From a virus: DNA of 64,000 bases. Position numbers and translations under genes: made by a program. Each line of letters opens with the position of its first letter. The stretch's first letter is position 1. The stretch covers positions 5,398 to 69,397 of the IMG/VR virus record IMGVR_UViG_3300028831_000484. One strand, given 5' to 3'. This document shows positions 1 through 61,699 of the stretch, piece by piece. Under the pieces are notes generated by a model. It saw only the letters and a program-made list of their open reading frames with translations. It had not been told where the DNA came from and searched no databases.

Positions 1-633
1 GCGCTTTACGACACTCTGAAGGACGCTTCGTTGGAGGAAATGATCATTGAAGCAGCCGAGAAAGTGAACACCACGCCGGAGTTGTTAACGGCGCTCATGC
101 GCGACAAGACTGGCAACCCGGTGATGACAGGCGAAGCCCTGCGTAAAGCAATGGCGCGTTGTCCGTGGAACGCGAGGTTCAAGACGGCGTGTTGGAAGTG
201 CAGCGATATGTTCGTGAAGTTCTCTGGCCGTGACGACTGCTTCTACGGAGCAATCTACAAGAAGCGCAAGGCGCAGGAGATCGCTTACAACTCTCAGAAA
301 AAGTTCGCAGACCAAGCCGCTCAGAAGTTGAAGGACTTCAAGATCGGCAAGAGCACCGATGCTTACAAAGCCTACATCCAAGGGTATCTGCCGGATGCGC
401 ACTTGCACGCTAGGGCCATGAGATACACGGTCAAAGTTTTGCTGAGTCATTGGCAATTGGTGGCCTATTGGTGCCACTTCAAGACCTTGCCGCCAGCACC
501 GTATGCACTCGTATATCTCAAGCCACTGGGCCACACACACCTTATTAAACCACCGAATCTGGAGCTGTTCGAGGAGTTCAAGCCGCTCATTGAAAAGTTG
601 AAGGCTGAATGGCCGGAGTGGTGGGTGGATTAG
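1..633 (+). CDS. Tas-like Nop-domain (IS110-related) RNA-binding protein, 5'-truncated
   Basis: Frame is open back to base 1 (ALYDTLKDAS...), so the start lies outside the window. Motifs PWNARFKTACWK, FYGAIYKKRKAQE, YLPDAHLHARAMRYTVKVLLSH and PPAPY match my recollection of the phage IS110/Nop-like family. A dual-repeat array begins at its stop codon. Confidence 0.8.
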   Translation, partial: ALYDTLKDASLEEMIIEAAEKVNTTPELLTALMRDKTGNPVMTGEALRKAMARCPWNARFKTACWKCSDMFVKFSGRDDCFYGAIYKKRKAQEIAYNSQKKFADQAAQKLKDFKIGKSTDAYKAYIQGYLPDAHLHARAMRYTVKVLLSHWQLVAYWCHFKTLPPAPYALVYLKPLGHTHLIKPPNLELFEEFKPLIEKLKAEWPEWWVD

Positions 634-1033
634 TCATGTCACGAGATAGCAACAAAAGTCACGCACGTCAGTCATGACGTTCGCTCGCAACAACAACCAT
701 GCACGCCAGCCATCGTCCGGATTAGCAACAAGCCGTACGTGCAGCCACGAGAAAAGCTGGCAACATACGAATAGTTAAAGTCACATCATGTAATCGCAAC
801 AATGCCACTGAACGAGTCCTGTGATGCAATAGCAACAAGTTCGTTGAACGATCAGTTACGCTGCTCAATGGCAACAAGGAACTTGAGCGAGGCCAAGAAC
901 CGCGATAGCAACATAGCTTGCGAGCAGCCAACGTGTTCAATAGCAACAATTACGCCGAGCAGCCAAGCGTGCCAGTTGCAACAAAAGGAATGAACAAGCC
1001 AGGCATGCAGATTGCAACAGAGCGCATAATCGT
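632..1033 (+). repeat. TIGR-like dual-repeat guide array 1 (11 units)
   Basis: GCAACA loop motif at 649,687,725,760,796,832,871,908,943,978,1014 (35-39 nt period). Each is preceded by AG(C/T)CA-like + 10 nt + 2 nt and followed by ~9 variable nt. Confidence 0.88.
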
Positions 1034-1405
1034 ATGAGAATTACGTTCTGGTCGAAAGCGGAAAACCTCCCGCCGTGTCTGGTTCGAATGCTGGCGCGGC
1101 GGAGAGGTTCCCGGTTGATGACCGATGAAGAGATTGCCTCCGAATCCGGTCTGCCTTGCCAGTTGGTGAGGGCGTTATCGCAACTCACTGACTGGACGGG
1201 GGTGGACATCTGGACGATGCAAAAGTTCTTGGAGGGATGCAAGGTAGACTTTGAGGACTACAAAGAAATGCACAGAATTTCGGAATACCTACGCAGGGAA
1301 CCGAACTGGGGTCACCTCAAAAGGGATCCCGAATGGCAGACCAGGTGGTTGCCACTCATTGAACGATGGACAAAACAAATACATGGTAGTAGTAACGAAA
1401 GGTAG
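1034..1405 (+). CDS. small putative HTH DNA-binding protein
   Basis: MTDEEIASESGLPCQLVRAL resembles a helix-turn-helix; lies directly upstream of the integrase. Confidence 0.5.
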   Translation: MRITFWSKAENLPPCLVRMLARRRGSRLMTDEEIASESGLPCQLVRALSQLTDWTGVDIWTMQKFLEGCKVDFEDYKEMHRISEYLRREPNWGHLKRDPEWQTRWLPLIERWTKQIHGSSNER

Positions 1406-3606: not shown

Positions 3607-3939
3607 TTACGGGGTGAGGGTGGTGGTGAAGGTTGGTGCAGTTGGCGCGGCCGGGATAAAGCTTTCAAAGTCAACACTTGGGTCCGACTCTCCGTCAACG
3701 TTGACCGCCGTGACAATATAGTAATGGGTGCCAGCCGTCACGTTCGAAACGTAAGCCATGAGCTGTGGGTCTGCCGATGGCAAGACACTGAGAAGATAAG
3801 TATAGTTGGTGCCAGTCCGTTCGTAAACCTTGTACTCGGTTACCTGATCGGAGTCCGGGTTCGGCAGGAAATAAAACCATGTGTCCAGTGCAATGGCTGG
3901 AACAACAATGAGCAGGATGATGGCGAGAGCGCGGGTCAT
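3607..3939 (-). CDS. secreted FN3-like domain protein
   Basis: Signal peptide MTRALAIILLIVVPAIA; YKVY...HYYIVTAVNVDGESDPS is an FN3 C-terminal motif. Confidence 0.7.
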   Translation of the reverse strand: MTRALAIILLIVVPAIALDTWFYFLPNPDSDQVTEYKVYERTGTNYTYLLSVLPSADPQLMAYVSNVTAGTHYYIVTAVNVDGESDPSVDFESFIPAAPTAPTFTTTLTP

Positions 3940-4190
3940 TTCTTGTTTGTCCAAAAGCTGGTGTCGATGCCGCACTTTTTCATCAGTTCAATGACGGCAG
4001 ATGCGTCGGTGGCATACAAGTGACCAACGAATCCGCCAGCGCAATTGAGCAGGAACCCAACGAAAGCAGTCCACCAAAGCACCCGGTTTGGAGCGCCGCC
4101 AGCCAGCATCGGCAGCATGCCAACGCCCATCAATGCCGTGCCAAGCGTTCCAATGGCGCCTCCCAGTGTGGTTCTCCAGTTCGGTGGCAT
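3936..4190 (-). CDS. holin-like two-TM membrane protein
   Basis: NWRTTLGGAIG, two hydrophobic helices, basic C-terminus; at the end of the late operon. Confidence 0.55.
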   Translation of the reverse strand: MPPNWRTTLGGAIGTLGTALMGVGMLPMLAGGAPNRVLWWTAFVGFLLNCAGGFVGHLYATDASAVIELMKKCGIDTSFWTNKK

Positions 4191-4823: not shown

Positions 4824-5183
4824 CTAATGCTTGAGCCAGTTCTCTATGACTTTGCTTACTATGACCGGAAGTCCCAGCAGTGCGAGATAGGCCGGTATCG
4901 ACCATTTGCTTACTAGCAGTGACCGCCATCTTTCCTGTTTCCATAGTCTGTACTCCAGTGTTCGCACCTGCTTGTTCAACAGGAGCATTTGCGCCGTGTT
5001 GAAATCCGACTGCTGAGCCATCATGTCCAGCGTCGCAACGACTTCACGCTCGCGCCGAGTGAGGTTCGGTGAATCCAAAAGGTCTGGTGGGATCCGTGGT
5101 TGAAACGCAGGCCGCTCCACAGCCGGAAACTGGGAGCGCTCAAACAGGTCTGTGTCTCCTTCCGGTTCACGTTCGTTGCTCAT
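4824..5183 (-). CDS. coiled-coil protein with C-terminal TM helix
   Basis: Hydrophobic WSIPAYLALLGLPVIV near the C-terminus. Confidence 0.55.
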   Translation of the reverse strand: MSNEREPEGDTDLFERSQFPAVERPAFQPRIPPDLLDSPNLTRREREVVATLDMMAQQSDFNTAQMLLLNKQVRTLEYRLWKQERWRSLLVSKWSIPAYLALLGLPVIVSKVIENWLKH

Positions 5184-5202
5184 TTGTTAACGCCATGATC
5201 GT

Positions 5203-6609
5203 TCAGTTCGTTGTCACCGTAGCACCGCGTGTTACTAACGCCGCCGCATCAGTTAATCCCTGGCCGGTTGGCTGCGCATTAGTTCCGCCGTTGAGCAGCA
5301 CCGTCTCGCCAGTTGTGCCCCATGTTGGTGTAGCTATCAAGAAGGCAAGGATGGCATTCACACTAGCTGCATTTAGCGAATTGCCAGTGAAATCATAATT
5401 GACACCGGCAGTTGCCACGTAGTTAGCCAGAGTGAGGGTGGTTAGCAACACGTTGGACTTTATGGTTATGCCACCAGTTGCGGCAACCAGGAGCGGAAGA
5501 TTGACGGTCGTAAGCAGGGTATTGTTTTGAAAAGTCAAAGCCGTGCAGGTGGTTAAACTGGCCAGAACGGTTGAGTCAATTGTCGTTAAGTTGGTGGCCT
5601 CAATCGTCAGCGCGTTGCAGGTCTCCAACAACGGAATTGATAATGCCGATACAGCCGAAATGCTTATCTGTCCACCAGTGTTAATCGTCGTCAGCGCTGG
5701 CAATGAAAGCGAAGGATGAACTGACCCGGCTGGCTGAAAAATAAACGCGCCACACGTCTCCAGCAACGGGACGGACAACGTCGTAAGCGATGGGCAATTG
5801 CTGACCTCCACTGCTCCGTCCGTAGCTGTACCAAGCGATGGCAGTAATATCTGCTCCAGTAATGCGGCACCTGCAAAAGACATCCCATGACACGTTGTAA
5901 GCTCCGGGAAATTAAGCTCCGTGAGAGAATCACAAGTAATAACATTGAAATTGCCGCCGATCACTTTCAACGCGGGGAAAAGCAGTGAAGCCAAAAGCGG
6001 GCAAATACGAAGATAAAAATAACTGCTTGCTTCAAGCGTCGTTAACAGCGGGAATGAAAGGCTGAGCAATTGGTTCATGCTCTCAAAGTCGTAGCCTTGC
6101 TTAGCTGACACATGGTTTATCACCAAGTCAGTAATGTCATTGTCATCAGCTTGATAAACGAATAAGCCAAGGTTGCCAGCCTTGTCCGATGGTGTAACAA
6201 CAACGTCAGCGCCACCTGTACCATCAGCGGGCAGGTACAATTTCGTGCCATGCAAATTATCCAACATCGGCCCGCCCTGCACATTCAACTCAACCTTCTT
6301 CTTACGCCACATCTCGCAGGTCAACGAAATGGCGTCGTCCGTTGTGGCTTCGGCCGATGAACCCGGCACACGAATTACGAATGTATCCGTGTCTGTGACG
6401 ATGGCCGCTTCTCCTTTTGGCGTGTTGAACTCGTCCTCCTTTGCTCCAGAAATGTAAACCCTCGTTCCGTTTTGCAGGTTGTGATCACCATCCGTGGTGA
6501 CCACAACTTTCTGCGTATCACCAACTCGCTCCATGCTGGTGATGCCGATGGTGGTTAAGCGATCCGGCGTGGACCCGCCAACCGAAAGTGTTAGAAATCC
6601 GTTTCGCAT
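5203..6609 (-). CDS. leucine-rich repeat (L-domain-like) protein, probable virion adhesin
   Basis: Repeated LxLPxLxT units; N-terminal H-x-L..V.ISGA..FN domain; paralogue of 6611-7870. Confidence 0.7.
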   Translation of the reverse strand: MRNGFLTLSVGGSTPDRLTTIGITSMERVGDTQKVVVTTDGDHNLQNGTRVYISGAKEDEFNTPKGEAAIVTDTDTFVIRVPGSSAEATTDDAISLTCEMWRKKKVELNVQGGPMLDNLHGTKLYLPADGTGGADVVVTPSDKAGNLGLFVYQADDNDITDLVINHVSAKQGYDFESMNQLLSLSFPLLTTLEASSYFYLRICPLLASLLFPALKVIGGNFNVITCDSLTELNFPELTTCHGMSFAGAALLEQILLPSLGTATDGAVEVSNCPSLTTLSVPLLETCGAFIFQPAGSVHPSLSLPALTTINTGGQISISAVSALSIPLLETCNALTIEATNLTTIDSTVLASLTTCTALTFQNNTLLTTVNLPLLVAATGGITIKSNVLLTTLTLANYVATAGVNYDFTGNSLNAASVNAILAFLIATPTWGTTGETVLLNGGTNAQPTGQGLTDAAALVTRGATVTTN

Positions 6610-19042: not shown

Positions 19043-19799
19043 TTACACCTTTCAGCTTCGGATTGAATCGAGCGTAATGTGGATCAACCTTCGCATGGCA
19101 CTTGGCGCACAATGTCACGCCGTTGCTCACGTCGTAGCGCAACTCCGGATGTGAGCGCCACGGCTTGATGTGGTGTACCATCACCTTCAATCCAGGTTCC
19201 TTGCAATCAGTGCAGGTCTTGTTGTCGCGGGCGAACACCGCCTCACGCCAAATGTCATACCCACATTGATTAAGTGCGCGTGTTGGTCTCTTGCCGTTGT
19301 GCGGAACGGTTGCGAAACGCGCCATGTGAATTGCTGACAACTTTCGCCTGTGTTCCAATGAACGCTTCTTTCCACGATTTGCTGCGGCAATCTTTTCTAC
19401 AGTGGCTGCATCAATAACGCGCCCTACACCTTTGCCTTTTCTGGCGGCAGACATCCTGGCGCGCACCTCCGCAGAATTCTTCCTACCACGGTTGGCCGCT
19501 ACAGTTTTGATAACAGCTTCCACTGGCTGTTTTTTGCCTTTGTTTACGGCACTAAGCTTCGCTCGCGTTTCCGGCGTGGGATGATAACCGCCTTTCGCCG
19601 CCATCGTCGCACGACGTTTGGCCACGGTCTCCGGTGCGATCTTCTTTCCTGTGCTGGCCGCACTAATCTTATCGCCCCATGTAATCACGCGGCCCTTCAA
19701 TCTGGCGCTCATCTTGGCACGGTATTCCGGTGATTTAACAACAGCGAGCAGTCGTTCTTTACGCAGTGCTTCCTTTTGTGGGTCTGACAGGGTAGGCAT
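19035..19799 (-). CDS. HNH endonuclease with NUMOD3-like repeats
   Basis: Repeats ETRAKLSAVNKGKK / EVRARMSAARKGK / EHRRKLSAIH; C-terminal CTDC...VHHIKPW...SNGVTLCAKCH. Confidence 0.85.
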   Translation of the reverse strand: MPTLSDPQKEALRKERLLAVVKSPEYRAKMSARLKGRVITWGDKISAASTGKKIAPETVAKRRATMAAKGGYHPTPETRAKLSAVNKGKKQPVEAVIKTVAANRGRKNSAEVRARMSAARKGKGVGRVIDAATVEKIAAANRGKKRSLEHRRKLSAIHMARFATVPHNGKRPTRALNQCGYDIWREAVFARDNKTCTDCKEPGLKVMVHHIKPWRSHPELRYDVSNGVTLCAKCHAKVDPHYARFNPKLKGVNA

Positions 19800-19808
19800 G
19801 GTGCTGTT

Positions 19809-19817
19809 ATTATAGCA
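19809..19817 (-). promoter_or_regulatory. extended -10 element (TGcTATAAT) upstream of the HNH gene
   Basis: Minus strand reads tgctataat-aacagcacc-ATG. Confidence 0.45.
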
Positions 19818-19825
19818 CATAGGCA

Positions 19826-21013
19826 TCAATACTCCCACAGTGCCGCAGTTTGCTCATCCGCTGCCGCTCCAGCAGCAGCTCCAGCTCCGCCGTAACTACC
19901 ATAGCTCCCAACGCTTGGTGTATCGGCAAATGATGTAGAGCCAGTTGCTCCGCCCTCCCAAGCCGATGGATCCTTGCCAATAGCTCCCTCCGCTGCCGCT
20001 TTCGCCGCCGCACTGCTATACCCACCATATTGACTGGATGGCGTGAACAGTCCCTTCGCCCAAGCATTAGCCAAGTCACCTCCGGCGCGTCCGGTTGTTG
20101 CCGACAGGATTTGCCATGGAGAAGTTTTAACGCCGGGCGTTGGCAATGGCGTAACCTGAAACGGATTTTGGCCAGTCCTGAAAAACTGGAACGGTTGCAA
20201 CCTGCGATTGAACGCCGTGTTGACCTGTTCGGCTGGTTGCTCCTGAAGGTTTAAAATGTTCTGAGCCTGCGCCGTTGGCAGGTTCAGCGATCCTAACTTC
20301 AAGTTACGACCAGACGCTTGGATGCCTTGCACTTCCTGCGCATTGGCCAAGTTCGCGCCAGCCACGTCCATCGCGTTTTGACCAAGGATGCCCCTTGTAG
20401 CATCCAACTGTATGCGCTGATTGGCCAATGAGTCTCCGGTGTAACCACGGCGCGCTTGAATCGCCCTTGTATCGTTGAGGATCTTTTGAAGGGCTTCCAA
20501 CCCCGATTCCTTGCGCGCACCGGCCAGCGCCAGCCGCGCATCTGCAACCGGCCCGGCTTCCGCCAGTGCCTGGTTCGTCAACGTGTTGTCGTAGATCCCG
20601 CGCACCACATCGCCGCCCGCCTCCGCCGTTGGAAGGTAAGCGTTGACGACTGCTTGTGCGCGAGCGGCCTGTTCCTCCGGCGTCCCGAGAACGTTGCCCG
20701 TCGCCGTAAATGTTCTCCCCGCCTCGTCTGCAATTGCGCGCTCCTGATCGCCAAAATAATAAGGAAGGAACGCGGATTCCCGGCCGACCACGTCACTTGG
20801 CACCTGCACGGCGCCAACGCGAGACGGCAACGCCGCGCCACGGGAAGCCAGTTGAAATAACAGGTTGGCCTGACGATCCTGCAACGCAGACTTTCTCTGA
20901 CGTTCGGAGGCTTTATCCTGCGCTGCGGATCCCAGAACTGCGGCAAGCGTACCCGAAAGCACCGTGCCCAGCATTGGCAACACCGCGAAACCAGCTAGTA
21001 GTTCCAATATCAT
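19826..21013 (-). CDS. putative ejection (pilot) protein
   Basis: Hydrophobic Gly/Ala N-terminus, Ala/Gln-rich; lies between the GNAT gene and the giant protein. Confidence 0.6.
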   Translation of the reverse strand: MILELLAGFAVLPMLGTVLSGTLAAVLGSAAQDKASERQRKSALQDRQANLLFQLASRGAALPSRVGAVQVPSDVVGRESAFLPYYFGDQERAIADEAGRTFTATGNVLGTPEEQAARAQAVVNAYLPTAEAGGDVVRGIYDNTLTNQALAEAGPVADARLALAGARKESGLEALQKILNDTRAIQARRGYTGDSLANQRIQLDATRGILGQNAMDVAGANLANAQEVQGIQASGRNLKLGSLNLPTAQAQNILNLQEQPAEQVNTAFNRRLQPFQFFRTGQNPFQVTPLPTPGVKTSPWQILSATTGRAGGDLANAWAKGLFTPSSQYGGYSSAAAKAAAEGAIGKDPSAWEGGATGSTSFADTPSVGSYGSYGGAGAAAGAAADEQTAALWEY

Positions 21014-52670: not shown

Positions 52671-52928
52671 ATGGCAAAGTTATCACCAGAAGAAGAAGCA
52701 ACGCGCAGGTTCTGCAAAGCCTACTGGGCTTGGCTGCGAAGGGACCTTGTGGAGGAACCACTGCCGGTAGACTTCGGCGTTGACCCGCAGTTCGGTGAAG
52801 CAGTGGCCAGGCAGATTCACATAGAATTCGAAGATCGTGTTATGCAGAAGACTTTGGCTAACCTGCCTCAACGGCCAGTCAAGAGAAGCGCTAGCAACAA
52901 TTCAGACGAACGCAAACCGATGTTGTAG
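52671..52928 (+). CDS. small hypothetical protein
   Basis: Chained ORF; its 3' end overlaps a guide-like unit. Confidence 0.55.
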   Translation: MAKLSPEEEATRRFCKAYWAWLRRDLVEEPLPVDFGVDPQFGEAVARQIHIEFEDRVMQKTLANLPQRPVKRSASNNSDERKPML

Positions 52929-53151
52929 CATTCAAAATACAAGTTAGCAACATAGCCACAGTGAACAAGCACGAGCTACAGGAGGAATACCAGTATCGCT
53001 ACGACGAGCGGCTTGGTATCTTTTGCGGAAATAACGAACCTACCGTTGAACAAAAAGCCATTGCCACCGAAGAGGCAGAGCAATGGTTAGAGGAGGAGAT
53101 GGAACGAAGTCAAATGCCGGGATAGCAACAAACCTGTTATACGTCGCGCCA
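52877..53151 (+). repeat. TIGR-like mini-array 4 (3 dispersed units)
   Basis: agtca-N10-tagcaaca at 52877/52892 and 53108/53123; attca-N10-tagcaaca at 52930/52945. Confidence 0.65.
52961..53125 (+). CDS. 54-aa acidic hypothetical protein (not in the ORF track)
   Basis: GTG start; NKHELQEEYQYRYDERLGIFCG...; lies between guide-like units. Confidence 0.5.
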   Translation: MNKHELQEEYQYRYDERLGIFCGNNEPTVEQKAIATEEAEQWLEEEMERSQMPG

Positions 53152-54098: not shown

Positions 54099-54900
54099 TT
54101 TTCCAAGCCAACCCCCTGAGTATTCGACTAACGTTTCCGCCATTGTTGTTGAACCTTTTGGCAATAGCGTCAACAGTCCAACCGTCTTTTCTTAGTTGGT
54201 GCATCTGTCTAACGATTTCCACACTAAGCGCGGTTTTGCTTTGATTGTAGTTCTGTTCGGCACGAGTTGCAAAACGACAGTTGCCGGGTTCATAGTCCCC
54301 ATCGTTGTCAATCCTCTCGATTGTTAAGTCGGGCTTCCAGCCGTGATTTTTCGCCCAAGCGTAAAACACATCGAAGCTGCACGCCCACTGCTCGCAGACC
54401 TTTATTCCACGCAGATAATAATACTTTCGTTCGCCCTCATTTGCCTTTGAGGAACACCTTCTTAACATCCCTCGCCAGATCCGCTTTAACTTTTTGTAGT
54501 CAGGCAGGAGCACTGGCTTTGGTGGTTTTACTTCTGGAATCTTTTTGGGTCTCAACTCCCACGCTTTCTTTTGCGCGCAATTGAAGCATCTAACGCTGAC
54601 TTTCTTTGGACTAGAATATGTAACCAGTTTTTCCTTCCCACAATCAACACATCGAACAATATACGTCCAGTGCTTCCCAACTTGGTTGGCTCGCTGAACA
54701 CCATCAATGAAAATCCGCCTGTGTGACGAACTGCAAGCGTGCGAGCAGTAAAGTCGATGCCTGAAGTGTTCTATCGGTTCGATTCGTCCCGAAGATAATC
54801 GGCCGCGAGAAAAAGATTTGCCGCAATGCTGGCAAATTTTGTCAGGCAATGGAATTAGTGCTGACACTTGGCTGGGAGTAGGCGAATTCCATTTGGTCAT
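54040..54900 (-). CDS. HNH homing endonuclease (YGGRG-like) with N-terminal Zn fingers
   Basis: CQHCGK..YCSHAC; RGIKVCEQW; TIERIDNDGDYEPGNCRFAT. Confidence 0.85.
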   Translation of the reverse strand: MTKWNSPTPSQVSALIPLPDKICQHCGKSFSRGRLSSGRIEPIEHFRHRLYCSHACSSSHRRIFIDGVQRANQVGKHWTYIVRCVDCGKEKLVTYSSPKKVSVRCFNCAQKKAWELRPKKIPEVKPPKPVLLPDYKKLKRIWRGMLRRCSSKANEGERKYYYLRGIKVCEQWACSFDVFYAWAKNHGWKPDLTIERIDNDGDYEPGNCRFATRAEQNYNQSKTALSVEIVRQMHQLRKDGWTVDAIAKRFNNNGGNVSRILRGLAWKINPNPAPIQGNLFSPSNCP

Positions 54901-55222
54901 CCTTTTGGAACGAAGCGGCCGGGGAAGCTTTAAGGTTGGCTCCGTAGAGCGCGCCGAATTTGTTAACTCGACGTAGCAAGGTAGCCCTCCTTGCCCTCAT
55001 CACCTCCCCGGCCTTTTTCAGCTCACACCAGACGGGGTGTACAACCCGGCACCCTTCACAGTATTGAGCCGGATCTTCGAAGACCTGCCAGCAGTTCGGA
55101 TCGTTGGTGCACGGATGATCAGCGCGCAAGTCGTTCCTTTGTTTACGAAACGCGGAAACTTTTTCGTAAGCTTCCCCGAAGGCGATGCCCGCCTTGGCAA
55201 TGTTAATGAGTTCTTTGTTCAT
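54842..55222 (-). CDS. hypothetical protein
   Basis: Starts immediately after array 2. Confidence 0.55.
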   Translation of the reverse strand: MNKELINIAKAGIAFGEAYEKVSAFRKQRNDLRADHPCTNDPNCWQVFEDPAQYCEGCRVVHPVWCELKKAGEVMRARRATLLRRVNKFGALYGANLKASPAASFQKDDQMEFAYSQPSVSTNSIA

Positions 55223-55224
55223 GA

Positions 55225-56030
55225 TGACTACGCTCTGCCATTTTGTTGCGAATGCTGCTCCTGGCTATCGAACAACCATATTGTTGCTATCACTGTCTCT
55301 GTCTTTTAACTATTCATTCTTGGGCTTTGTTGCCATTTCCACTTGCGGCTGCGTGCTACGAGCTTGTTGCGATTTGCCGTTATAACTACTTCATTACCGT
55401 GTTGCTACTTGGTGCTGTGGTTACGAGCTTTCGCCTTGTTGCTATTCAGCATGATGCCTTCGTGCACACTGTTTGTTGCGAACTGGTTGTTTGACTGCGT
55501 TCGGGATTTTTGTTGCCATCTGCTGCTACGACTTCATACGACGTTCCGGTTGCAAACCTCTTCTGTGATTGCGTGCCTTCTCTCTGTTGCCATCGGGCTT
55601 AGTGACTTCATTCGCGGCAAATGTTGCCATCACAGTCTGCGGCTGCGTGCTCATTATATGTTGCCATCAGGATTCATGACTTCGTGCTCGGTGAACGTTG
55701 CTATCGACACCCTTAACTACGCTCTTCGGCATTGTCGCCATCATTATTCTTGGCTGCACTCGTCTGGTCTGTTGCGATTCAAGCGCGTGATTAACGCATG
55801 AGCTTTCTGTCGCTATTTGCTACGTTGGCTTCGTTCGCTCAGGGATCTTGTCGCTATCCAGCATATTGGCTGCGCGTGTAACGTTCTTGTTGCGATGCTC
55901 CTTCATGACTACGTTTTATGAACACGGCATTATTGTTGCGATTCCTCACCATGGCTACGCTTTGTGCTCCTGTTGCAATTTCCCATCGTAACTACGTTCG
56001 GCCAATTTGTTGCGATCTTGTGATGTGACT
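55225..56030 (-). repeat. TIGR-like dual-repeat guide array 2 (21 units)
   Basis: TGT(T/C)GC-type motif on + at 55244,55282,55328,55365,55400,55437,55474,55511,55548,55585,55622,55659,55696,55733,55770,55808,55849,55888,55934,55971,56008; mostly 37-nt period; same consensus as array 1. Confidence 0.9.
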
Positions 56031-56040
56031 GGGTTATGGG

Positions 56041-56412
56041 TTACGATGGAGGCTGACGTAAACGTTGCAGCCTGTCAATCTCCGCCGCGATTAAAGCTCC
56101 GGCTTTGATCAAGTTGTAAATCGGGTCTGGAGACGGTTTCCACCACTCAGACCCCCATGGCCAGGTTACCTGCTCTGGCTTGCATTCCGAATACTCCATC
56201 GGGTAACAATTCTCGTCTATGCCGCGTGCCGAATTGAGCGTGTGGAGAACATGCGTTCCGTCCGGTCCAAGCGCGTAACACGCAGCGGCAATGCGAAGCT
56301 GCCCGTCGAAGTGTTCGTTGTCGTGCTCCTCCGTCCATCCTTCGCCTCCATGGTCCTTCGGGGCCTTTTGGCGTTCTCGTTCTGCTGCGATGAGTTCGAT
56401 TCCAGTTTTCAT
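56041..56412 (-). CDS. conserved phage protein (IAAERxRQ..EGWT.EHD family)
   Basis: ELIAAERERQ...EGWTEEHDNEH..GQLRIAAACYA...LIKAGALIAAEIDRLQR. Confidence 0.75.
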   Translation of the reverse strand: MKTGIELIAAERERQKAPKDHGGEGWTEEHDNEHFDGQLRIAAACYALGPDGTHVLHTLNSARGIDENCYPMEYSECKPEQVTWPWGSEWWKPSPDPIYNLIKAGALIAAEIDRLQRLRQPPS

Positions 56413-56678
56413 AAAGCCGGTGGTTCGGGTTCTTGGGGGAACGGCAAAACGCCGCAATGCAGGATCCTGTCCTTGCCGAATTCGGCCAAGCCCAAACAGG
56501 CCATCGCTCCGCCGTGCCAATAGCAGGTGTGCGCGTTGCACCGGTCCCCCTTCTCATCCTCTGTCTCCCAGTCCAAAGCAATGAGCACATGCTCGAAGTG
56601 TTCGCCAAGCAGGGAAAAGGCTTTGCGGATCGCATCCCGCTGGGCAGGCGTCATGTCATCGGGGTATTTGGCGCTCAT
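56409..56678 (-). CDS. hypothetical protein
   Basis: ATGA-chained. Confidence 0.6.
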   Translation of the reverse strand: MSAKYPDDMTPAQRDAIRKAFSLLGEHFEHVLIALDWETEDEKGDRCNAHTCYWHGGAMACLGLAEFGKDRILHCGVLPFPQEPEPPAL

Positions 56679-57899: not shown

Positions 57900-58172
57900 T
57901 TAATGGAATTTTATCCTGCCATCCGCAATGAAATCAATGAGTTCCTGAACCGTCATCGCCCCGGTGCACTCCTTCTCCAGCCAAATGTCGTCAATTTCAC
58001 AGTTCAAGGAGTCCTCAAGCTCCAACGAGAAATCAATCCGCTCCAACGAGTCGAACTTCAACTCCGCAATCGTCGTTTGCAGCGATACCCCAGCCGCCAG
58101 CTCTGAGTTGTTGCGCAGGATTTCAAGAACCACGTCGTGCAGCAGGTTGTATTGGGCGGTTGTGGGCTTCAT
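57900..58172 (-). CDS. acyl carrier protein-like
   Basis: ELKFDSLERIDFSLELED...TVQELIDFI; DSL phosphopantetheine motif; acidic, 90 aa. Confidence 0.8.
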   Translation of the reverse strand: MKPTTAQYNLLHDVVLEILRNNSELAAGVSLQTTIAELKFDSLERIDFSLELEDSLNCEIDDIWLEKECTGAMTVQELIDFIADGRIKFH

Positions 58173-60049
58173 AGATCGAAGGGAGGTGGCGGTTCAGGCG
58201 CGGGCGGCTCCAAAGGCCCTGGTTCAGGTGGAGGAGGTGGCGTAAAGTCAAGAAGTGGGTCAATTTTTGGATCCGCAACCGGTCCAACCTTGCAGTAGCG
58301 CATGACATCAGCAAAAAACCAGAAGCCAAACGTGCCTTCCACGCCCGTATCCCGCTGCTTGTCGCATTTGACCAGCGCATCCGCCGAATGATCGTGAGGA
58401 TCATCGTTATTTTTCTTCTTGTTCCTCCAAATCACCATGACGTTGTCGGCTTGGTTCGTTAAATCGCCGCTCCCTTTGACATCCTGCTTCGTAGCCGAGG
58501 TAAACTCATCAGTTTTTTTACGACTGTGAACCACCAGGTGCACATGCGCGTCATAAAGCTGAGCGTGAGCCGACAATTCATTCGAAAAAGCACGTTGCCC
58601 GTCCAAGTCATCACCCGCCAAATCAATTTTCATGAGCGAATCGACCACGAAATGATCGATGCCATACCTGGCCGAGGCGTATTCCATCAACTCAAGAACT
58701 TCTGCGGTCTTAACGATGCCCTTCAAATCGAAAATCCACAGCTTGCCAGTCATCCATTCCAAAACCTGATCGATTTCTTCGTTGGTAACGCTCGTTTTAA
58801 CCAAAGCCTGACGTATCATGCGCCAAAGAGTTATCTTTCCGGGCATCTCCATCGAAGCTATAGCCACCGTTTGATCCGCTAGCATGGCGTGCAACATCAG
58901 CTCAGAAAGAAAAATTGATTTTCCGTGCCCAGAGAACCCCGTCCAAATCGTCATAGCGGCCGGTGCGAACTTAACCTTGTTATGCAACAGGTCCGGAATG
59001 AAGCCTTCAGGCTCGTTGCCGGTAGGATTAGCGACTTCATGAATTTCATCGGAGAATTCAATGGGTCGTTTAATGCCAGCAGGAACAAAAGGCTGCGCAT
59101 TCAACAGTGCCTTTCCAAAAAACTCCCGCTCGCATCCGTGTTGCAAGGCTTCGTTCGCATCCTTGAAGCCTTCCAGCACCACGCGAAAGCAACGATGCCG
59201 CCCCAGCCGCTTGGCTACACCCTCCGCTGCTTCCATGCCCGCCTTGTCGGAATCGAAAGACAAAAAGATTTTATCGAACGCCTGCAAGTTCTCCCATTCG
59301 AAATCAATCCATGAACGATCCGATGCACCCTGCGGAACCGACAACGCAGGGAACCCAACCTCCGCCCACGTTAACGCATCGATCTCTCCCTCCGTGATGA
59401 CTACCTCACGACACTTCGCCGGAAAAGCCTGCCAACCGAACAGGGAGGGTGGCGTGCCAGTGCCTTCTTTGCGTATAAGTTTCTTCCCGTCCGGTCCACG
59501 CTTCACGTTCAGATATTTCATCGCCAGCAACTCATCGTTCGGGGAATAATACGGGAAGGCGATTTCCGCCCGCGCACCCGGTCCTTCACCGGTCATCAAC
59601 TCTTTCATTCGAAACGCACGCAGCGTTTCAAACGACAACGCCCGTTGACCCGTCAGATATTCGCAGACCGGGGATACGAAACGAACAAGGACCGCAGAAG
59701 CAGGCTCAGCGATCTTTGACCACTTCCGTTCTCCAAACGTAGACTGCGGTTCCTTGATGTGTAGAAACTCCCGCGCCATAGCAAGAGCTTTAACCAACTT
59801 CACGCCCTTCGATGCTACAATCAAATCCAACAAGTCGCCGGAGGAGCTACTACCACCCGCCGCGAAATCACACCACACCCCGGCTTTATCACCAATCAAA
59901 TGAACTTTTAACGACGAGCCGCTACCCCCGTTGACGTTGCTCGCTTCATACTCGTTTCCAACTCGTTTCCCACCGGGTAACAACCAGTGGGCCACCGCTT
60001 CAGCTCGTTGAGCCAATAACCTGGACAAATCTTTAGCATCGTATTTCAT
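58169..60049 (-). CDS. bifunctional primase-helicase (TOPRIM + SF4, T7 gp4/Twinkle-like)
   Basis: VITEGEIDAL, FDSDKAG (TOPRIM); TGFSGHGKS, FVVDSL, VVHSRK, KGSGDLTNQADNV (SF4). Confidence 0.9.
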   Translation of the reverse strand: MKYDAKDLSRLLAQRAEAVAHWLLPGGKRVGNEYEASNVNGGSGSSLKVHLIGDKAGVWCDFAAGGSSSSGDLLDLIVASKGVKLVKALAMAREFLHIKEPQSTFGERKWSKIAEPASAVLVRFVSPVCEYLTGQRALSFETLRAFRMKELMTGEGPGARAEIAFPYYSPNDELLAMKYLNVKRGPDGKKLIRKEGTGTPPSLFGWQAFPAKCREVVITEGEIDALTWAEVGFPALSVPQGASDRSWIDFEWENLQAFDKIFLSFDSDKAGMEAAEGVAKRLGRHRCFRVVLEGFKDANEALQHGCEREFFGKALLNAQPFVPAGIKRPIEFSDEIHEVANPTGNEPEGFIPDLLHNKVKFAPAAMTIWTGFSGHGKSIFLSELMLHAMLADQTVAIASMEMPGKITLWRMIRQALVKTSVTNEEIDQVLEWMTGKLWIFDLKGIVKTAEVLELMEYASARYGIDHFVVDSLMKIDLAGDDLDGQRAFSNELSAHAQLYDAHVHLVVHSRKKTDEFTSATKQDVKGSGDLTNQADNVMVIWRNKKKNNDDPHDHSADALVKCDKQRDTGVEGTFGFWFFADVMRYCKVGPVADPKIDPLLDFTPPPPPEPGPLEPPAPEPPPPFDL

Positions 60050-60069: not shown

Positions 60070-60277
60070 CGGCCGCATCGCATCGGTTGTTGCAATTCCC
60101 GTGCTTGTCTTGGCCGGGCGCGCTTCAATGTATTGGTTGTCGCTACTGCCTACGTTGATTACTCGAACAAGGTGTTTGTCGCTATCCCGTCGAATGTTTG
60201 AACGAACTGTCTGGTTGTTGCCATCTCGTCTCATGACTGAACGAACGCCAAGTGTGTTGCTATTGAGCTTTCTGTCT
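60070..60277 (-). repeat. TIGR-like dual-repeat guide array 3 (5 units)
   Basis: Loop motif on + at 60088,60138,60177,60216,60255 (spacing 50,39,39,39); edge variant TTCGTTC. Confidence 0.85.
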
Positions 60278-60287
60278 CTCGTGAAAT

Positions 60288-61217
60288 TCATAGACTCGGC
60301 TTCCTCACCTGCGGCGGCGGATTTAAAACTCTCCTTCGCCTCGAAATCTCCCCATTCTCATCAAACCCCTCCAGCGTCGTCTGCTCACCCACGACCTTTC
60401 CAACCTCCTCCCGCATCACCGGCAAATCACGCGCCGAGTAATACGAATCAAACTTGGTTTTTGCGAACAACGTGATCGGCCGAAGGTATTCCTCCTGCGG
60501 CGTCCCTTTCCAACGGCTGACCTGCCGATTGATCATGACCCTACATCCCGCCTCCTCCACACCAGCCTCCGCCAGCCTCGCAGCAATTATCGAAAGATTG
60601 GACTCCACCTCCCGAAACGGCTTCCCAGTCGCCTGCGCCAAGTGTCCCAATAACCTGCGCGCCACCTCATAACGAACAATCTTCTCTGAATCACCGTTTG
60701 TGCTTGCCTTAGTAATCGCGCGCGCGGTACAAGGATCTCTTACAAGGTCCTTGTAAGAATTCTGAGTAAGATCCTGATCCTGATCCTTATCCTCATGGGA
60801 GGGGGCCTCCCATGCCACTGGGAGTGGGGGTGGGAGGGGGGCTACCAGGGGGACTGGGAGGGGGGCTACCACCCCATCGCTTCCTATCAAAAGCCCATGT
60901 TTCTTCAACAATGCCATCACTCGAACATGGTATTGGCATCGTCCTGATAGCTCTCCGTATTGAAACTTGATGAACTTCGGAATAAACCACTTCGCCTCCG
61001 CCAGCCTCCTCACCCTGTCCCCCAATAATCCCATGTCCGTTTCCTTAAAACCTCCCGCCCCTACTCCTGACTCGAAATTTACCCTGTCCCAATCTAACTC
61101 GATTACTCCTGCCCCATCACATTGATCGCAGATATACAACCACAACCACTGCAATCGCATTCCAAGCTGCCGGAACCATGGATCTCCCCACTTCCCACCT
61201 TCAGTAAATCGCTTCAT
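60288..61217 (-). CDS. phage replication initiator (Phg_2220_C-like C-terminus)
   Basis: MKRFTEGGKWGDPWFRQL N-terminus; YLRPITLFAKTKFDSY C-terminus; DKDQDQD linker. Confidence 0.8.
   Translation of the reverse strand: MKRFTEGGKWGDPWFRQLGMRLQWLWLYICDQCDGAGVIELDWDRVNFESGVGAGGFKETDMGLLGDRVRRLAEAKWFIPKFIKFQYGELSGRCQYHVRVMALLKKHGLLIGSDGVVAPLPVPLVAPLPPPLPVAWEAPSHEDKDQDQDLTQNSYKDLVRDPCTARAITKASTNGDSEKIVRYEVARRLLGHLAQATGKPFREVESNLSIIAARLAEAGVEEAGCRVMINRQVSRWKGTPQEEYLRPITLFAKTKFDSYYSARDLPVMREEVGKVVGEQTTLEGFDENGEISRRRRVLNPPPQVRKPSL
60796..60871. repeat. iteron-like direct repeats inside the initiator gene (putative origin)
   Basis: TGGGAGGGGGGCTACCA at 60831 and 60855; partial copy at 60796. Confidence 0.5.
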
Positions 61218-61699
61218 CCGTGACTTTCCTTCCTGTAAAAAAATCGGGACCCCACCAGACTGAGCTTTCTTCGGAAGATACTGGCCGCTCGGCCGTTTCG
61301 AAGCAATCGGTGGAGTCCCAAACTTTAAATCTCGTTTCCAAAGAAAGCTGCCCGCTGTTCTACTCCCTCCACCATCCCCTGCAAGTCTTTTTTTCAACTC
61401 GCTCGTTTTTCCTCCCAATTCAATGAACCTTAATGAAATTGAAATTGTCAGAAAGTTGAGAGAAGGGCCATTGTGCGCCGCCCCGGCCTGGCCCCCTCGC
61501 CCCCGGATCACCCCGGATACTCGAAATCCTGGCGTTTCTCCTCATTTGCAAGGAGTTACGCGTTTCACAACCTCAATCGCCGTATGATCAAGCAAGTCGC
61601 CCGTTTCGGGATTTCTCCAATTCCTTCAAACGACTTGCGGATCAAACGGAAACACAGCTTAGCTGATAGACCTTGACGCGTTCAACGGATTTGACCGTA

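Follow-up and report, generated by a model that had tools for sequence, protein, structure and literature searches.

A 21-unit TIGR array embedded in a replication operon, 54.6 kb from the only tasA gene of a phage genome

Results and Discussion

The 77,647-nt IMG/VR virus record IMGVR_UViG_3300028831_000484, of which bases 5398–69397 (64,000 nt) form the stretch analysed here (hereafter the window), comes from a soil phage and contains an ordinary, well-preserved TasA dual-repeat array (array B) that is notable only for its remote position inside an operon. The reading that we prefer, to which we give a probability of about 0.8, is that array B is a TIGR array carried by the transcript of a replication/recombination operon and loaded in trans by the TasA protein of the same phage, for RNA-guided DNA binding that blocks transcription or replication. 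The features on which this reading is built are collected in Table 1.

Table 1. Arrays, genes and other features of the phage genome (window coordinates unless given under genome).
Feature	Window	Genome	Strand	Remarks
Array D		3932-4160	+	outside the window; 6 units, 38-nt period; upstream of the HNH_3 ORF and tasA
HNH_3 endonuclease ORF, 251 aa		4157-4912		between array D and tasA; stop 5 nt before the tasA ATG
tasA	1..633 (3' part)	4918-6030 (full gene)	+	full gene = window -479 to 633
Array A	634..1040		+	11 units directly past the tasA stop, in tasA sense
Terminator-like hairpin	54837-54816			after the 126-aa gene
Downstream gene, 126 aa	54842..55222		-	no family match
Spurious small ORFs	55185-55385, 55243-55494, 55848-55991		+	
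Array B, TIGR dual-repeat array	55225..56036	60622-61433	-	21 guide units; 22 edge and 21 loop repeats
Last (3') edge repeat of array B	55225..55235		-	GAGCGUAGUCA
Spurious 152-aa ORF	55343..55801		+	antisense to the operon
Central block of array B	55400..55778		-	11 loop repeats, exact 37-nt spacing
First (5') edge repeat of array B	56026..56036		-	UAACCCAGUCA; matches the consensus at 8/11 positions
Upstream operon gene	56041..56541		-	matches several PHROG families without known function (best, phrog_6628)
ACP-like ORF, 90 aa	57900-58172		-	Pfam PP-binding, phosphopantetheine attachment (E 1.3e-4); directly downstream of the primase-helicase gene
Primase-helicase (Toprim_2 + DnaB_C)	58169..60049		-	same operon
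Array C	60070..60277		-	5 units, 39-nt period; edges of UUCG type; flanked by the replication initiator gene and the primase-helicase gene
Replication initiator-like gene	60288-61511		-	

Anatomy of array B

Array B is 812 nt long and fills the stop-to-start gap between two operon genes, its 5' end lying 4 nt past the stop codon of the upstream gene and its 3' end 2 nt ahead of the ATG (55222) of the downstream one. Read on the minus strand, each unit is composed of the 11-nt GAACGYAGYCA, 8 variable nucleotides, the 10-nt GAUNGCAACA and 8 further variable nucleotides; on the plus strand, this appears as TTGTTGCNAT at intervals of ~37 nt, and another conserved block, TGRCTNCG, stands halfway between copies. 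Because the array both starts and ends with GAACGYAGYCA, we regard this motif as the edge repeat defined by Faure et al., the other one being the loop repeat. A first-pass annotation of the same DNA had described 21 units with a long central run at exactly 37-nt period, conserved repeats and all-different spacers, and this description proved accurate: 21 loop repeats are bracketed by 22 edge repeats, 11 consecutive loop repeats (the first at 55778, the eleventh at 55408) keep the exact period, and all 42 spacers (8 nt each plus a conserved purine) differ. Moreover, no spacer pair is common to two units (the best match is 12/18, the same as in shuffled sequences), while the distribution of 8-nt spacer similarities equals the expectation.

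The loop core U.GC[AG]AC occurs 21 times; when the 812 nt were mononucleotide-shuffled 2000 times, it was counted 0.30 times on average and never more than 4 times. Five positions of the loop repeat are invariant in all 21 units. A common template, GA..G.A..CA, fits both edge and loop repeats, and the distance from AGYCA to AUNG is exactly 9 nt (8 variable plus the conserved purine) in 20 of the 21 units. Loop-to-loop spacings are, in order, 37, 37, 46, 39, 41, 38, ten times 37, 35, 37, 46 and 38 nt; thus, 13 of 20 are exactly 37 nt, the irregular ones being 35, 38, 38, 39 and 41 nt and two of 46 nt, so that some units may yield non-functional guides. TRF reported no repeat at this locus, which is not surprising, as the repeats are conserved to only about one half, and Rfam gave no match up to E 1 within 54700–56400.

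Two irregularities at the borders of the array can be mentioned here. The two 3'-most units (window 55243–55345) have edges of the array C/D type (AAAGACA; UUCGAUAGCCA), and one of them, 46 nt long, shows a tandem double edge; this is a weak hint that the segment may be a recombination junction between arrays. At the other border, the last ~25 nt of the upstream ORF, including its stop (window 56041–56064), resemble a degenerate unit of the array (ACGUCAGCC ... AUCGUAACC), wrongly spaced.

A single, distant TasA-like effector

The genome encodes one Tas protein, of 370 aa, and the genes between arrays D and A are the HNH_3 ORF and tasA. Neither a second tas nor a tas remnant was found anywhere in the genome, including around arrays B and C, using tblastn with 14 Tas proteins and a six-frame HMM search. 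Array B is thus an orphan in cis, its presumed partner being encoded 54.6 kb away along the record. It follows that the label “orphan”, already given to this array by the first-pass annotation, is apt in that no effector gene stands beside it, but only in cis, since a cognate tasA is present in the same genome.

In Pfam, the phage Tas matches only Transposase_20 (the IS110 RNA-binding module), with no nuclease domain, and it is not detected by the Nop family PF01798. It belongs to a large family with members of 270–390 aa, whose profile matches TaTasR (9mty; E 1.3e-20) and SpTasH (E 1e-8). The AlphaFold model (pLDDT 88.9, pTM 0.83) is all-helical after a disordered N-terminus of 30 aa, and the best 11 Foldseek matches of this model in the PDB are TasH and TasR chains (probability 1.00), followed by the IS110-family recombinases IS621 and ISCro4. 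As no nuclease domain is detected, we call the phage Tas TasA-like, i.e., a nuclease-less protein with a predicted Nop domain; TasA proteins combine a coiled coil and a Nop domain and have neither HNH nor RuvC.

SpTasH is known to process its own precursor through a C-terminal Tyr/His loop (Y289/H296; PMC13421893). In the consensus of the phage Tas family, PYxIAxLGH, Y and H are 7 residues apart as in SpTasH, and H is invariant. The loop of the phage Tas itself reads PYALVYLKPLGH, i.e., Y...GH with an insertion of 3 residues relative to the family consensus; it is modelled with low pLDDT, and the sequence alignment to SpTasH stops short of it. For the HNH_3 protein encoded beside tasA, sequence comparison gave no relative of solved structure; its ORF could represent the insertion of a homing endonuclease, or else encode a separate nuclease that partners TasA.

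Strand of array B and its kinship with tas-adjacent arrays

For comparison, 80 viral loci encoding a Tas 36–46% identical to the phage Tas were fetched; at least 61 of them showed a candidate repeat with a period of ~36 nt, abutting tas in most. What follows on strand and repeats covers the arrays that were read individually (e.g., L122, L155 and L201). In tas sense, the two repeats read GAGTGAACCA / GAnAGTACCA in L122, GAGCGAGCCA / GATAGAAACA in L201 and GAATAAATCA / GAnAGTATCA in L155, and the template GA..G.A..CA is common to array B and to the arrays of L122, L123, L155 and L201. On sequence grounds, we identify these pairs as the counterparts of GAACGYAGYCA / GAUNGCAACA. The period of array B is 37 rather than 36 nt owing to one extra base in its 11-nt edge repeat.

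Box motifs alone cannot fix the strand, because UG...CA reads alike on both. The strand follows instead from the tas-sense repeats of the relatives and from the fact that arrays D and A run in the same direction as tasA; these two lines agree with each other, and with the first-pass annotation, that the minus strand is the RNA sense of array B. Each of the four arrays of the genome reads in the sense of its surrounding genes.

TIGR arrays are defined by two alternating repeats and paired short spacers (PMC12045711). The criteria that we used were repeats of 8–12 nt, alternating; spacers of 8–9 nt, rarely up to 12; tas adjacent; and edge ends plus an intrinsic terminator. Array B displays the two repeats, the paired spacers, box C/box D-like ends common to both repeats (a pseudo-symmetry suited to a Tas dimer) and a cognate Tas in the genome, and departs from the definition by its distance from tas. 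This grammar and the homology to tas-adjacent arrays bear out the earlier view of a guide-type array.

A closer look at known systems leads to the same placement. Array B resembles the dual-repeat TIGR-TasA systems (Flavonifractor plautii FpTIGR-TasA and MbTasA; PMC12045711, bioRxiv 10.64898/2026.09.09.750476) in its repeats of 10–11 nt with GA...CA box-like ends, in a predicted Nop-fold effector without nuclease and in being phage-borne, but it differs from them in lying 54.6 kb from tas, within a replication operon and without a terminator of its own, in its 37-nt period (36 nt, with the 11-nt edge accounting for the difference, being canonical) and in that the guides of this phage are spread over four loci. 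With SpTIGR-TasH of Salicola phage CGphi29 (PDB 9W03/9W04; PMC13421893), which gives the best structural matches to the phage Tas model, it shares 8-nt spacers, a guide total of 16 nt and carriage by a phage; in contrast, SpTasH has an N-terminal HNH nuclease, cuts DNA and has its array adjacent, whereas the phage Tas is devoid of a nuclease domain. The boxes of array B also differ from the UG...CCA of TasR arrays. Finally, orphan CRISPR arrays and phage mini-arrays using Cas proteins encoded elsewhere offer a parallel, in that a guide array without an adjacent effector is served in trans, as we propose here. The proteins of the two kinds of system are unrelated, however, and the arrays themselves are unlike, CRISPR having a single repeat of 25–36 nt and one long spacer where array B has two different short repeats in a 37-nt unit. 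A CRISPR identity for array B was rejected on account of this unit and of the absence of cas genes, no cas-like family being found among the neighbour genes scanned.

Gene context

In transcription order, the minus-strand block that includes array B comprises the initiator-like gene, array C, the primase-helicase gene, the ACP-like ORF, a Holliday-junction-resolvase-like gene, small genes, array B, the 126-aa gene and an HNH endonuclease gene. Array B is within 2.2 kb of the primase-helicase gene and 4.3 kb of the initiator gene. Edge repeats are found at both of its ends, but the next terminator-like hairpin is located only past the following gene, and scans for an array-specific promoter or terminator, around array B and up to 62.8 kb, stayed at chance level. 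Without a promoter or terminator of the array's own, co-transcription with the operon is the most economical inference. The GC skew changes sign near 62 kb, which fits a transcription unit extending from ~62 kb down to ~54.8 kb, the site of the only terminator-like hairpin.

Proposed mechanism

From this organisation, and by analogy with characterized Tas systems, we infer the transcription, trans-loading and processing of array B and the repressive outcome. A minus-strand polycistronic transcript of the replication/recombination operon (early genes) would carry the array. TasA, whose gene stands 54.6 kb away next to arrays D and A, would recognise both kinds of repeat as a dimer and cut, or direct cutting, inside the edge ones, releasing tigRNAs of ~37 nt with two 8-nt spacers each. 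Each TasA ribonucleoprotein (RNP) would then bind a foreign or host DNA site of ~16 bp, one spacer per strand, and the bound RNP would block transcription or replication without cutting, as for other TasA. Indeed, TasA RNPs bind DNA and repress transcription, and catalytically dead TasR represses likewise (bioRxiv 10.64898/2026.09.09.750476).

A further idea, which we regard as speculative and rather doubtful, is that stop-to-start arrays would tie guide sets to transcription programmes and make edge-repeat cutting a regulator of downstream genes. If so, the guides of arrays D and A, which neighbour tasA and the integrase gene, would be available in the lysogen, and arrays C and B only when the replication operon fires, while TasA-dependent edge cuts would sever the polycistronic mRNA 10–15 nt before the next start codon.

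Alternative explanations

Arrays B and C might instead be relics of a tas locus that the replication module once contained, passively transcribed but unused as guides. On the contig that encodes the closest Tas homologue (47% identity), tas immediately precedes the gene for a 623-aa Toprim/AAA_25 primase-helicase, and gaps of ~560 and ~670 nt could hold arrays; in addition, irregular units (46, 41, 39 and 35 nt) are found at both ends of array B. Against this stand the absence of any tas remnant near B or C and the state of array B, whose repeats are conserved as well as or better than those of the tas-adjacent array A and whose spacers are fully diverged; moreover, tas is only rarely near a primase-helicase gene among the 80 relatives (5 weak cases). 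We consider a relic unlikely. The related notion that B and C mark the ancestral position of tas was abandoned, as it depends on one contig and is not borne out across the 80 relatives.

Less probable still is that array B is read by, or titrates, the Tas of a co-infecting phage or of the host. Array B has the repeats of A and D, the arrays on either side of the tasA of this phage, so that the resident TasA is the simplest partner.

At face value, 21 regularly spaced direct repeats inside a replication module might also suggest a DNA-level element, i.e., iterons or other protein-binding sites of a replication origin. However, arrays of this grammar also flank tasA, 54 kb away, and the guide arrays beside tas in unrelated phages match it; besides, two different short repeats separated by variable gaps fixed at 8 nt, with a period of 37 bp, make up the TIGR layout and not that of iterons. 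Furthermore, the four phages with the closest primase-helicases (44–47% identity) have no such repeats, no tas and no arrays within 10 kb, and other flanking genes, and the turning point of the GC skew is near 62 kb rather than at array B. An origin element is therefore, in our opinion, very improbable.

Finally, a translated repeat protein can be practically dismissed: the plus-strand ORFs open over array B (152, 83, 66 and 47 aa) are all antisense to the operon and have zero matches in Pfam and PHROG, ORFs on the sense strand do not exceed 42 aa and, since 37 = 1 mod 3, the repeat motif shifts from frame to frame along the 152-aa ORF, occupying all three (the plus-strand ORFs read it in frames 2,1,2,0,1,2,0,1,2,0,1,2), which excludes a constraint at the protein level, so that the earlier judgement of these ORFs as artefacts is correct.

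Array size and the question of expansion

Four arrays of this grammar are present in the 77.6-kb record, and array B is, as had been noted before, the largest (21 units, vs. 11 in A, 6 in D and 5 in C) and about twice as long as the tas-linked array A. The first-pass annotation had seen in this size a suggestion of ongoing expansion, a proposal that the data do not support. Array B has no duplicated or near-duplicated units, and in the three soil-metagenome DNA runs in which it was recovered (one study, possibly the source samples) it shows zero indels and zero substitutions; the run search listed the array B stretch in these three DNA runs only and in no RNA run. Besides, tas-adjacent arrays of relatives reach ~1.0–1.5 kb, i.e., 30–40 units, so that 21 units need no special explanation.

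A close relative of the phage, on which a polarised gain or loss of units could be followed, was not present in the collections searched: the primase-helicase has no relative among the viral contigs and the Tas none among GenBank phages. A scan of the viral contigs for two correctly spaced loop repeats returned only chance or coding-repeat matches.

Targets

According to the published 3'-overhang geometry, a target was modelled as spacer A joined, in that order, to the reverse complement of spacer B, and the mirror arrangement was searched as well. The 43 spacer pairs of the genome were compared with the 77.6-kb genome itself in both geometries, with gaps of 0–2 and on both strands. As 9+9 nt, one 16/18 match was obtained vs. 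0.6 expected and, as 8+8 nt, nothing at 15/16 or better. With no self-match beyond chance, the guides are not self-regulatory at full complementarity. Related phage DNA (2.6 Mb) contained two exact 16-mers (for arrays D and A, with a 2-nt gap) vs. 0–1 in controls; given these controls, we judged them to be chance matches and did not retain them as targets.

How unusual is the remote position?

To situate the distance between array B and tasA, five tas-positive relatives were fetched as whole records (G001–G005). Three of them (G001, G004 and G005) are complete genomes with one tas-adjacent array each, while the other two (G002 and G003) have three arrays each, interleaved with genes and within ~5 kb of tas. 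In addition, locus L155 has an array of more than 20 units at 19479–20981, i.e., 8.5–9.3 kb from tas, with none detected beside tas. Array dispersal thus occurs in the clade, and 54.6 kb is the extreme value among the genomes examined.

TIGR-Tas systems were described only in 2025, and our search of the TIGR literature found no mention of orphan or distal TIGR arrays. Published surveys look within 5–10 kb of tas (PMC12045711; bioRxiv 10.64898/2026.09.09.750476). Of the 43 guides of the present genome, 26 belong to arrays B and C, at a distance from tas that exceeds 50 kb on the record; catalogues limited to a few kb around tas would miss all of these. Surveys centred on tas may thus under-count guide repertoires, and systems regarded as “arrayless” or as having short arrays may have remote ones. 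The position in an early operon would also make array B a concrete case for the trans-loading of TasA, and may tie guide production to the timing of expression.

Observations on the other arrays

Arrays D and A flank tasA, both in its sense. Array D has duplicated spacers (CAAACAAAG twice; ACGACGUAG/ACGACAUAG), which we read as a sign of local duplication, one that array B does not show. Isolated motifs resembling loop repeats (AUAGCAACAA and CUAGCAACAA) are found on the plus strand at window 52891–53131. Lastly, the 9-nt spacer GAAAGCUCA is found in array C, as spacer A of its first unit (60255–60263), and in array B, as spacer B of one unit (55799–55807), for about 0.01 such identities expected among all spacer pairs; the two guides carrying it may have a common half-site.
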